Origin: Candidatus Micrarchaeia archaeon
GTDB taxonomy: Archaea; Micrarchaeota; Micrarchaeia; Micrarchaeales; CABMGC01
Direction of reading: 5' to 3'
NCBI GenBank assembly: GCA_049964835.1
Contig: JBMFWW010000001.1
Location: 1-64,000 of the forward strand
Length of the DNA: 64,000 bases
The position numbers were made by a program, and so were the translations under genes. Below the pieces are notes generated by a model. That model was not told where the DNA came from and made no database searches. It saw nothing but the letters and a program-made list of their open reading frames with translations. Shown in pieces: positions 20,394 to 59,879 of the stretch (position 1 is its first letter; each line of letters starts with the position of its first letter).

Positions 20394-20463
20394 ATAAACA
20401 CAGTTATATATCTGTAAGAAAGTTTAAAATATCTATCCGATTAAAATCTATTTACTTTTATAT

Positions 20464-20588
20464 GCCAGGGTGGCAGAATCTGGTAACGCGCTGGTCTTGA
20501 GTTTTCAAAACATCAAGAGCTGATTTGGTGATGCGACAAGCGAACCAGTGCCCTTCGGGGCTTTAGGGTTCAAATCCCTACCCTGGCG
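20464..20588 (+). tRNA. tRNA-Ser(UGA) with 41-nt intron (20502-20542) at 37/38
   Basis: Acceptor GCCAGGG/CCCTGGC with G73; anticodon arm CTGGT-CT-TGA-G|A-ACCAG; long variable arm; BHB central helix CTTG/CAAG. Confidence 0.93.
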
Positions 20589-37432: not shown

Positions 37433-37545
37433 GCTCCGGTAGCTCAGTAGTAGAGCGCTTGTCTCGTAAAAACTTTTAAGAAAAGTTTTATCAAAACAGT
37501 TATCGAGCAAACAAGAGGTCGAGGGTGCGACTCCCTCCCGGGGCT
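37433..37545 (+). tRNA. tRNA-Thr(CGU) with 41-nt intron (37469-37509)
   Basis: GCTCCGG/CCGGGGC with U73; CTTGT-CT-CGT-A|A-ACAAG; BHB helix CTCG/CGAG. Confidence 0.92.
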
Positions 37546-55254: not shown

Positions 55255-55362
55255 GCCGTTGTAGCTCAGTCCGGGAGAGCGTTCGGCTGAAGACAAATCT
55301 TCTAAAAAGATTTGATAAATTCAGATACCGAAATGTCGTCGGTTCAAATCCGACCAACGGCA
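55255..55362 (+). tRNA. tRNA-Phe(GAA) with 34-nt intron (55293-55326)
   Basis: GCCGTTG/CAACGGC with A73; TTCGG-CT-GAA-G|A-CCGAA; BHB helix CTGA/TCAG. Confidence 0.93.
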
Positions 55363-59742: not shown

Positions 59743-59879
59743 TGGGGTTGCCGGGATTTGAACCCGGACATGCAGGTTACTTCATATTTTTCAAATTTCC
59801 AGATCTTCATCACAGCATTATGCTCAAAGATTATTAAACATCTGGAGCCTGCCGCGCTGCCAGATTACGCAACAACCCC
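59743..59879 (-). tRNA. tRNA-Trp(CCA) with 64-nt C/D-box-type intron (59778-59841)
   Basis: GGGGTTG/CAACCCC with A73; GCAGG-CT-CCA-G|A-CCTGC; intron contains GTGATGA and two TTGA boxes. Confidence 0.93.

Follow-up and report, generated by a model that had tools for sequence, protein, structure and literature searches.

RNA-guided 2'-O-methylation is thought to need a bipartite guide RNA with two protein-binding kinks. A guide of this kind can reside in a tRNA intron, as in the euryarchaeal pre-tRNA-Trp (Haloferax volcanii; Pyrococcus sR50), whose intron at the 37/38 site addresses position 34 of its own tRNA, i.e., the base paired with the fifth guide nucleotide (nt) upstream of the box (the +5 rule; PMC7994747, PMC2584109, PMC4090602). 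Here, we analyse a stretch of 64,000 nt from Candidatus Micrarchaeia archaeon (assembly GCA_049964835.1, contig JBMFWW010000001.1, positions 1 to 64,000; hereafter the window), in which a tRNA-Ser(UGA) gene carries a 41-nt intron at the same 37/38 site with a candidate guide to its own position 34. This Ser intron is best read as a monopartite, self-targeting form of the intron-encoded box C/D guide.

The likeness to the pre-tRNA-Trp guide goes further, as in both cases the pairing spans the exon-intron junction, which places the action before splicing, and the guide fold and the bulge-helix-bulge (BHB) fold used for splicing are exclusive. The Trp guide, at about 65-105 nt, is a complete bipartite RNA: it has the boxes C, D', C' and D, and its two guides serve positions 34 and 39. 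The Ser intron (31-48 nt), by contrast, has one kink-loop (K-loop) and one guide, for position 34 only, belongs to Ser(UGA) or Ser(CGA), and has its target fused to the guide through a short hairpin loop. In the available parts of the literature, wobble-directed guides are described for Leu(CAA), Leu(UAA), Met and Trp, with the Trp guide alone intronic (2021 review, PMC7994747); the Trp guide is given as always intronic and the Met guide as exonic (PMC2584109); and the tRNA-Trp intron is called 'a unique example' of an intron modifying its own tRNA (2014 review, PMC4090602). The stand-alone Pyrococcus C/D small RNAs (sRNAs) acting on the wobble base of Leu(CAA), Leu(UAA), Met and Trp resemble the Ser intron in guiding 2'-O-methylation of position 34 (Nm34), but they are separate genes, bipartite and trans-acting, and tRNA-Ser is not among the targets listed in the accessible part of that review (PMC7994747). 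Within the DPANN archaea, box C/D elements also occur in a non-Trp intron, the 66-nt intron of the Nanoarchaeum equitans elongator tRNA-Met (Randau 2012; PMC3491384), which differs in being longer, in being described as forming a stable box C/D sRNA for which the text consulted assigns no target, and in its host not being a tRNA-Ser. The terms 'box C' and 'methylation' are not found in the accessible part of the ARMAN tRNA paper (PMC3239211), and no tRNA-Ser intron was described as carrying a guide in the literature searched (subscription-only papers lay outside the search).

One-part guides are known from the laboratory. Wang, Yang & Ye (2022, RNA 28:1597; PMC9670817) built monopartite guides from a kink-turn (K-turn) or K-loop and a 12-nt guide, and half-mer C/D RNAs are functional in vitro (PMC9670817). 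Their construct MMG5, which is L7Ae-dependent, specific and efficient in vitro (PMC9670817), has the layout of the Ser intron, i.e., one K-loop preceded on the 5' side by a guide of 12 nt, whose position 5 faces the target. MMG5 is synthetic, works with Saccharolobus proteins and acts on a separate substrate through 8-11 base pairs (bp), whereas the Ser intron is natural, is covalently joined to its substrate, and offers a contiguous duplex of mostly 6-7 bp.

The tRNA-Ser(UGA) intron and its two folds

The features of the locus are listed below, all on the forward (+) strand; copies are those found by BLAST in related genomes (see the next section), and the fold is the minimum free energy (MFE) fold.

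20464-20588, +, class II tRNA-Ser(UGA) gene with a single intron (Rfam tRNA model, 40 bits; cloverleaf read by hand)
20464-20501, +, 5' exon, tRNA positions 1-37 (splice site 3' of G37 placed from the BHB geometry)
20502-20542, +, intron of 41 nt at the canonical 37/38 site (31-48 nt in the 69 copies)
20543-20588, +, 3' exon, positions 38-73, with A38 at 20543 (from the sequence)
20498-20500, +, anticodon TGA, with U34 at 20498 as the predicted 2'-O-methylation target (pairs with A20515; the pair covaries)
20495-20504, +, target strand of the guide hairpin, U31-G37 plus the first three intron bases (pairs with 20508-20518 in the MFE fold)
20505-20507, +, loop of the target-guide hairpin (MFE fold)
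20508-20519, +, 12-nt guide upstream of box D' (core and following G invariant except for the compensating A/G and the first base)
20520-20523, +, box D' CTGA (69/69 copies; invariant alignment columns)
20524-20527, +, K-loop spacer TTTG (variable in sequence and length, 3-9 nt, mode 3)
20528-20534, +, box C'-like GTGATGC, i.e., RTGATG plus C or T (RTGATG in 69/69 copies)
20500-20502, +, 5' BHB bulge A36 G37 U, splice site between 20501 and 20502 (sequence and the established geometry of 3-nt bulge, 4-bp helix, 3-nt bulge)
20537-20540, +, CAAG, 3' strand of the 4-bp central BHB helix and second anticodon-loop complement (pairs with CTTG 20496-20499, C32-G35)
20541-20543, +, 3' BHB bulge C G A38, splice site between 20542 and 20543 (from the sequence)

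An earlier note on this DNA had proposed that the intron is a minimal C/D guide aimed at its own wobble base, and the coordinates, intron, guide and box letters that it gave are all present. Indeed, the guide core TCAAGA (20513-20518) is the exact complement of TCTTGA (20495-20500; positions 31-36), and beyond a bulged A20512 the pairing continues with AAAC (20508-20511) on GTTT (20501-20504). A20515, the fifth base upstream of CTGA, is paired with U34 (20498). Two stretches of the intron are complementary to the anticodon loop, a 5' guide copy and a 3' BHB copy, and RNAfold prefers, at its MFE, the 10-bp hairpin made with the 5' copy over the BHB fold. Among 154 unique sequences from relatives, this hairpin forms with 7-10 bp in 150; the loop joining target and guide strands has 3-7 nt, and the most frequent class (68 of the 154) is a 24-nt hairpin that takes up all 12 nt upstream of CTGA.

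On the 3' side of the guide, the two boxes can be written as a K-loop (as defined in PMC1865073), with the pairs G20519-C20534, C20520-G20533, U20521.U20532, G20522.A20531 and A20523.G20530. The tandem sheared G.A and A.G pairs fit the sequence, and the place of stem I is taken by the unpaired spacer, variable across copies. In the 66 distinct BLAST sequences, the first of the two Watson-Crick pairs closing the K-loop, between the invariant G that precedes CTGA and the seventh base of the box C' stretch, is GC in 58 and GU in 6, and the second is CG in 66 of 66. A second K-turn in the leader or trailer, which would make the RNA bipartite, was considered and rejected: among 29 copies taken with 80 nt of flank on each side, one has RTGATG upstream, seven have CTGA downstream, and none has both. 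Read from its sequence, the Ser intron is a candidate for a natural single-K-loop guide, since it has no second K-turn.

The BHB fold needs the same anticodon loop as the guide pairing, and the one fold therefore precludes the other, as the earlier note had stated. Across the 66 sequences, 91.6% of the cells of the BHB helix are paired, and all four base pairs form in 45 of the 69 copies. The outer BHB helix, of about 2 bp, corresponds to the relaxed form. A CATCA/TGATG helix, which the earlier note had added to the splicing fold, did not hold up: compensatory changes are absent from it, and in 46 of the 66 sequences one pair does not form. The sole tRNA-splicing endonuclease gene found in the genome (C7:4341-4814, minus strand) has a 388-amino-acid frame with two catalytic-domain matches, which suggests a multi-unit single-chain enzyme like that of ARMAN-2. 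As the ARMAN-2 endonuclease is multi-unit and of broad specificity (PMC3239211), the short outer helix and the two-domain protein fit with an enzyme of this type.

The gene itself was not called by a default ARAGORN run. With introns allowed, ARAGORN labelled it Ala(tgc) because its intron was placed inside the anticodon; we rejected this label, given the class II body, the discriminator G73 and the lack of a G3:U70 pair. The class II body together with the anticodon UGA makes it a tRNA-Ser. Its acceptor stem is GCCAGGG/CCCTGGC, its T arm TAGGG/CCCTA, its anticodon stem CTGGT (20491-20495)/ACCAG (20544-20548), its anticodon loop runs from C32 through U33, U34, G35 and A36 to G37 (20496-20501), and its long variable arm spans 20549-20563. 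Four of its stems (acceptor, anticodon, variable and T) are fully paired (100%) in the 66 sequences and show compensatory changes. An A/T-rich box, AAGTTTAAAATATC (20420-20435), precedes the tRNA start by about 30-40 nt and is probably its archaeal promoter; relatives have similar GCTTAAA(A/T) boxes at an equal distance from their tRNA-Ser genes.

Conservation, covariation and distribution of the module

Taken alone, the bare motif says little. In the 806-kb genome, CTGA-N3-9-RTGATG is found 12 times, while 20 shuffles contain it 14.3 times on average, i.e., it is not enriched. In a post hoc test with 2,000,000 shuffles of the intron, a correctly placed guide together with the K-loop never arose, and the K-loop motif alone arose 1,191 times. 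As the bare motif is at chance level, a single sequence could be luck, and it is the conservation and covariation seen among relatives that is decisive.

We compared the 125-nt tRNA-Ser gene by BLAST with 60 relatives from three families. End-to-end matches including the intron were found in 56 of 61 genomes (the own genome counted), giving 69 copies at 75-100% identity. All 69 carry G-CTGA and all 69 carry RTGATG (GTGATG in 48, ATGATG in 21), and there is no insertion or deletion between the 6-nt guide core and the box in any of them, while the remainder of the intron varies freely in sequence and length. Box invariance was counted on these BLAST copies only, since the pattern used to retrieve further sequences fixed the boxes. 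The earlier claim of conserved boxes, guide and spacing in orthologous introns is thus borne out in 69 of 69 copies. Two of these copies come from the unpublished genome G050, as does one of the 30 CAU copies discussed below, and G050 and G219, the latter likewise unpublished, are included in the phylum-wide tallies; no conclusion rests on these two genomes alone.

The 69 BLAST copies were merged with 116 pattern-named copies into the 154 unique sequences, some of which have the anticodon CGA. Between the wobble base and the guide base five upstream of CTGA, we counted U:A in 118, C:G in 30, C:A in 6 and U:G in none. This result was not forced by the retrieval, which let either purine stand at the guide position and either pyrimidine at position 34; moreover, in the 66 distinct BLAST copies, whose selection is independent of the intron pattern, the position-34 pair is UA in 55, CG in 8 and unpaired in 3. 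The proposal that the guide aims at position 34 by the rule of the fifth base gains support from both sides, with the register fixed in 69 of 69 copies and the pair covarying. In the target-guide hairpin as a whole, five of ten pairs change on both sides in the 66 sequences.

On a tree built with both columns masked, C34 falls into 17 maximal clades, of which 12 are all-G at the guide base, four are single sequences with A, and one is mixed. By this tree, the change from U34 to C34 with compensation has clearly arisen repeatedly; the number of events is soft, the tree resting on about 125 columns and within-genome paralogues possibly exchanging sequence. Among the 36 CGA copies, the guide copy of the anticodon complement is compensated in 30 and the BHB copy in 11, which argues that the position-34 pairing is under stronger selection as part of the guide helix than as part of the BHB helix. 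Guide positions 8-12, in the 5' half of the guide, covary with the intron's first bases (2.71 extra pairs against 1.11 with the insert shuffled), and compensatory pairs occur there in the 66 sequences as well. Since this half pairs with the intron's own start, the target is the unspliced precursor.

The distribution of the module was surveyed by a pattern scan with one genome per species, in which at least 119 stretches matched. Among the 119 matches listed, 116 close into a full tRNA, two end at a contig edge, and one is a random non-tRNA (a Corynebacterium record). Record titles are given for 80 of the matches listed: 73 name Micrarchaeota, Micrarchaeia, Micrarchaeales or Micrarchaeaceae, and the remaining seven are four 'Marsarchaeota', one 'archaeon', one Methanothrix contig of a metagenome-assembled genome and the Corynebacterium record. 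In an even sample of 300 Micrarchaeota genomes, the module is present in 48 of the 53 genomes of one family (f1) and 71 of the 75 of another (f3). Outside these two families, an exon-only pattern, of which 150 rows were read by eye, returned many intronless Ser(UGA) genes and some with introns lacking visible boxes; this search was noisy, as its control also matched. At the level of sequence, we regard it as confirmed that the Ser-intron element is real, conserved, co-evolving with its target, and restricted to two Micrarchaeota families.

The genome also encodes the proteins that such a guide would need. The earlier note had made fibrillarin and Nop5 a point on which its proposal depended; we found fibrillarin (261 bits), Nop5 (163.5 bits) and L7Ae (97.2 bits), together with a second L7Ae-family gene. 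Three canonical two-guide box C/D sRNAs lie outside the window (C1:79656-79702, C14:4450-4490 and C19:9492-9543, all on the minus strand), with the layout RTGATGA, 10-13 nt, CTGA, N3 or N6, RTGATGA, guide, CTGA. Their internal K-loops (CTGA-N3/N6-RTGATGA) have the same geometry as that of the Ser intron. The second guide of the C19 sRNA, AGATCTTGAGTA, includes the sense sequence of the tRNA-Ser anticodon loop.

Proposed mechanism and alternative explanations

We consider it likely that the intron serves as a natural monopartite, one-K-loop C'/D' guide for Nm34 (Um34 or Cm34) on its own precursor, which would then refold into the BHB motif and be spliced. This reading is preferred in view of the +5 register in 69 of 69 copies, the covariation, the encoded proteins and the presence of both helices. 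In the course of events that we infer, positions 31-37 and the first intron bases of the unspliced tRNA-Ser would pair with the 12 nt directly 5' of CTGA, while CTGA and RTGATG would fold into a K-loop to which L7Ae would bind. Nop5 and fibrillarin would assemble on this complex, and the 2'-OH of the base opposite the fifth guide base (U34, or C34 in the CGA isoacceptor) would be methylated in cis. The anticodon loop would afterwards swap to the 3' CAAG complement, producing the BHB motif from which the endonuclease would excise the intron, so that methylation would come before splicing.

Several observations weigh against a guide of this kind. The consensus of box C' is RUGAUGA, and the box C' of the Ser intron goes without the seventh A: among the 69 copies this base is C in 62 and T in 7, and never A. 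A canonical archaeal guide of about 12 nt forms some 10 bp with its target; of the 154 copies, 63 have a contiguous duplex of 6 bp and 35 one of 7 bp, and 7-10 bp are attained only past the bulge. Shorter substrates were modified less, and sometimes less specifically, in the one-part system of Wang, Yang & Ye (PMC9670817), and the single-motif complexes of M. jannaschii studied by Hardin & Batey (2006; PMC1635284) were active and mismatch-intolerant, but not site-specific. By analogy with these systems, a single-K-loop design appears feasible, with a precision that would be system-dependent. Furthermore, 6 of the 36 CGA copies retain A opposite C34, a mismatch expected to block methylation. 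These are the six unique copies L037, L057 (= L056), L064, L106, L109 and L184, five of which keep A in the BHB copy too; they may have switched only recently from a UGA anticodon, or may no longer be methylated.

The distribution also counts on that side. The module is found in none of 172 genomes of 28 other families, and a control read backwards gave 0 matches. A leader-borne guide, sought as an anticodon complement beside a K-turn in the 150-nt leaders of 20 intronless Ser(UGA) genes from other families, was present in none. For a stand-alone guide against intronless tRNA-Ser, the pattern GTTYTCAAGANCTGA matched 6 times across 301 genomes and its backwards-read control 3 times; a box C at the right distance accompanies none of the 6 (C/D context 0/6). 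Hence, with no carrier among the 172 genomes and neither a leader-borne nor a stand-alone guide, Nm34 on tRNA-Ser is unsupported as a general need of the phylum. Among the leaders, that of L199 (G262:C7) carries a K-loop-like motif, CTGA-AATCT-TGATGA, about 50-60 nt upstream of an intronless tRNA-Ser(UGA); the bases preceding it are not an anticodon-loop complement.

If L7Ae binds the K-loop and no methylation follows, the kink and the anticodon-sequestering hairpin would be a folding or timing device only, shielding, for example, the anticodon loop against other enzymes or against BHB folding for as long as the ribonucleoprotein (RNP) stays bound. Two conserved, mutually exclusive helices do exist, the guide hairpin, not the BHB fold, is the MFE structure, a guide would normally have a longer duplex, and single-motif RNPs were non-specific in one in-vitro system (PMC1635284). 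Such a device does not predict N34 exactly at +5 in 69 of 69 copies without an indel, nor the recurrence of the same register in the CAU and Trp introns of this genome, whose guide-directed C34 methylation is established in other archaea (PMC2584109). That the guide copy is compensated more often than the BHB copy also fits a guide better, although a competitor helix would need pairing too, and we hold a pure timing role to be unlikely. The two ideas can be joined in a stronger form of the guide reading, i.e., a single-K-loop enzyme acting obligatorily in cis and serving as a checkpoint, whose guide hairpin would block the splicing fold until N34 is methylated and the RNP released. We put this form forward tentatively, as possible but less likely than not. 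It would mean that wobble methylation is hard-wired before splicing, and the compact design shared by the Ser and CAU introns would offer a general reason why such introns are kept.

The place of action is a further question. The same RNP might work in trans, with the excised intron (linear or circular) or one precursor guiding another precursor tRNA-Ser; in-vitro work on pre-tRNA-Trp favours trans action (PMC2584109, PMC4090602), and the sequence does not forbid it. With a loop of only 3-7 nt and an MFE hairpin, however, intramolecular pairing should beat an intermolecular duplex of 6-10 bp, and as the 5' half of the guide pairs with intron bases, the mature tRNA is not the best target; we give trans action a low probability. 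It is very improbable that the guide serves to target a different RNA (rRNA, for example) and matches the anticodon loop only through the need of introns to pair with the anticodon. Introns at 37/38 do always carry an anticodon-loop complement for the BHB, but here this complement is a separate second copy (20537-20540), the guide base tracks its own wobble base, and the 5' half covaries with the start of the intron; the genome holds no other perfect 12-nt complement of the guide, and its 14 one-mismatch sites are scattered (their overlap with rRNA was unchecked). A chance resemblance devoid of function, for which the count of the bare K-loop motif (12 against 14.3) could speak, is hardly credible beside invariance in 69 copies and two families amid a variable intron, and beside recurrent compensatory change. 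The guide acting on its own precursor thus stays our preferred reading.

Other tRNA introns of the genome and meaning for the lineage

The Ser intron has company in the same genome. In the window, a tRNA-Trp(CCA) gene (59743-59879, minus strand; the ARAGORN label Arg(cct) was rejected) has a 64-nt intron with GTGATGA (59807-59813), a 12-nt guide, AGATCTGGAAAT, and TTGA (59791-59794), C34 being at +5. Part of this guide, AGATCTGGA (59798-59806), pairs with U33-G37 and the first intron bases, and a second TTGA (59824-59827) is followed by a GCAT/ATGC mini-stem. This intron looks like a classical bipartite guide with TTGA replacing CTGA. A third case is a tRNA-CAU gene, probably elongator Met (C13:17106-17225, minus strand; L220/L221), whose 45-nt intron is laid out like the Ser intron: ATGAGT, the complement of positions 31-36, is followed by one base, an NNGA box, a covarying GC stem-loop and NRTGA, again with C34 at +5. 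The layout is kept in 30 of 30 copies from relatives in the order. Here the kink has a real stem, i.e., it is a K-turn, and only GA is fixed in the D'-like box.

Long introns of this genome are not all guides, since those of tRNA-Thr(CGU) (37433-37545, plus strand; 41 nt) and tRNA-Phe(GAA) (55255-55362, plus strand; 34 nt) lack a CTGA/RTGATG pair. A tRNA-Ser(GGA) gene (C16:6900-7124, minus strand; L073), missed by both ARAGORN and the Rfam model, carries in its anticodon loop an intron of about 12 nt which, read by eye, has neither K-loop nor module. The body of this gene is seemingly interrupted again on the 3' side of the T-loop.

So far, working one-part guides have come from the laboratory alone, and the results on their specificity conflict. 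If our reading is true, a natural one-kink guide in two archaeal families shows evolution using the minimal design, and the union of guide and target in one molecule provides a ready-made substrate. The idea of a self-modifying intron would then cover a further tRNA, with at least three in this lineage, and this bears on why tRNA introns persist. It also predicts Um34 or Cm34, unreported so far, on the tRNAs that read UCA and UCG in organisms with very small genomes.

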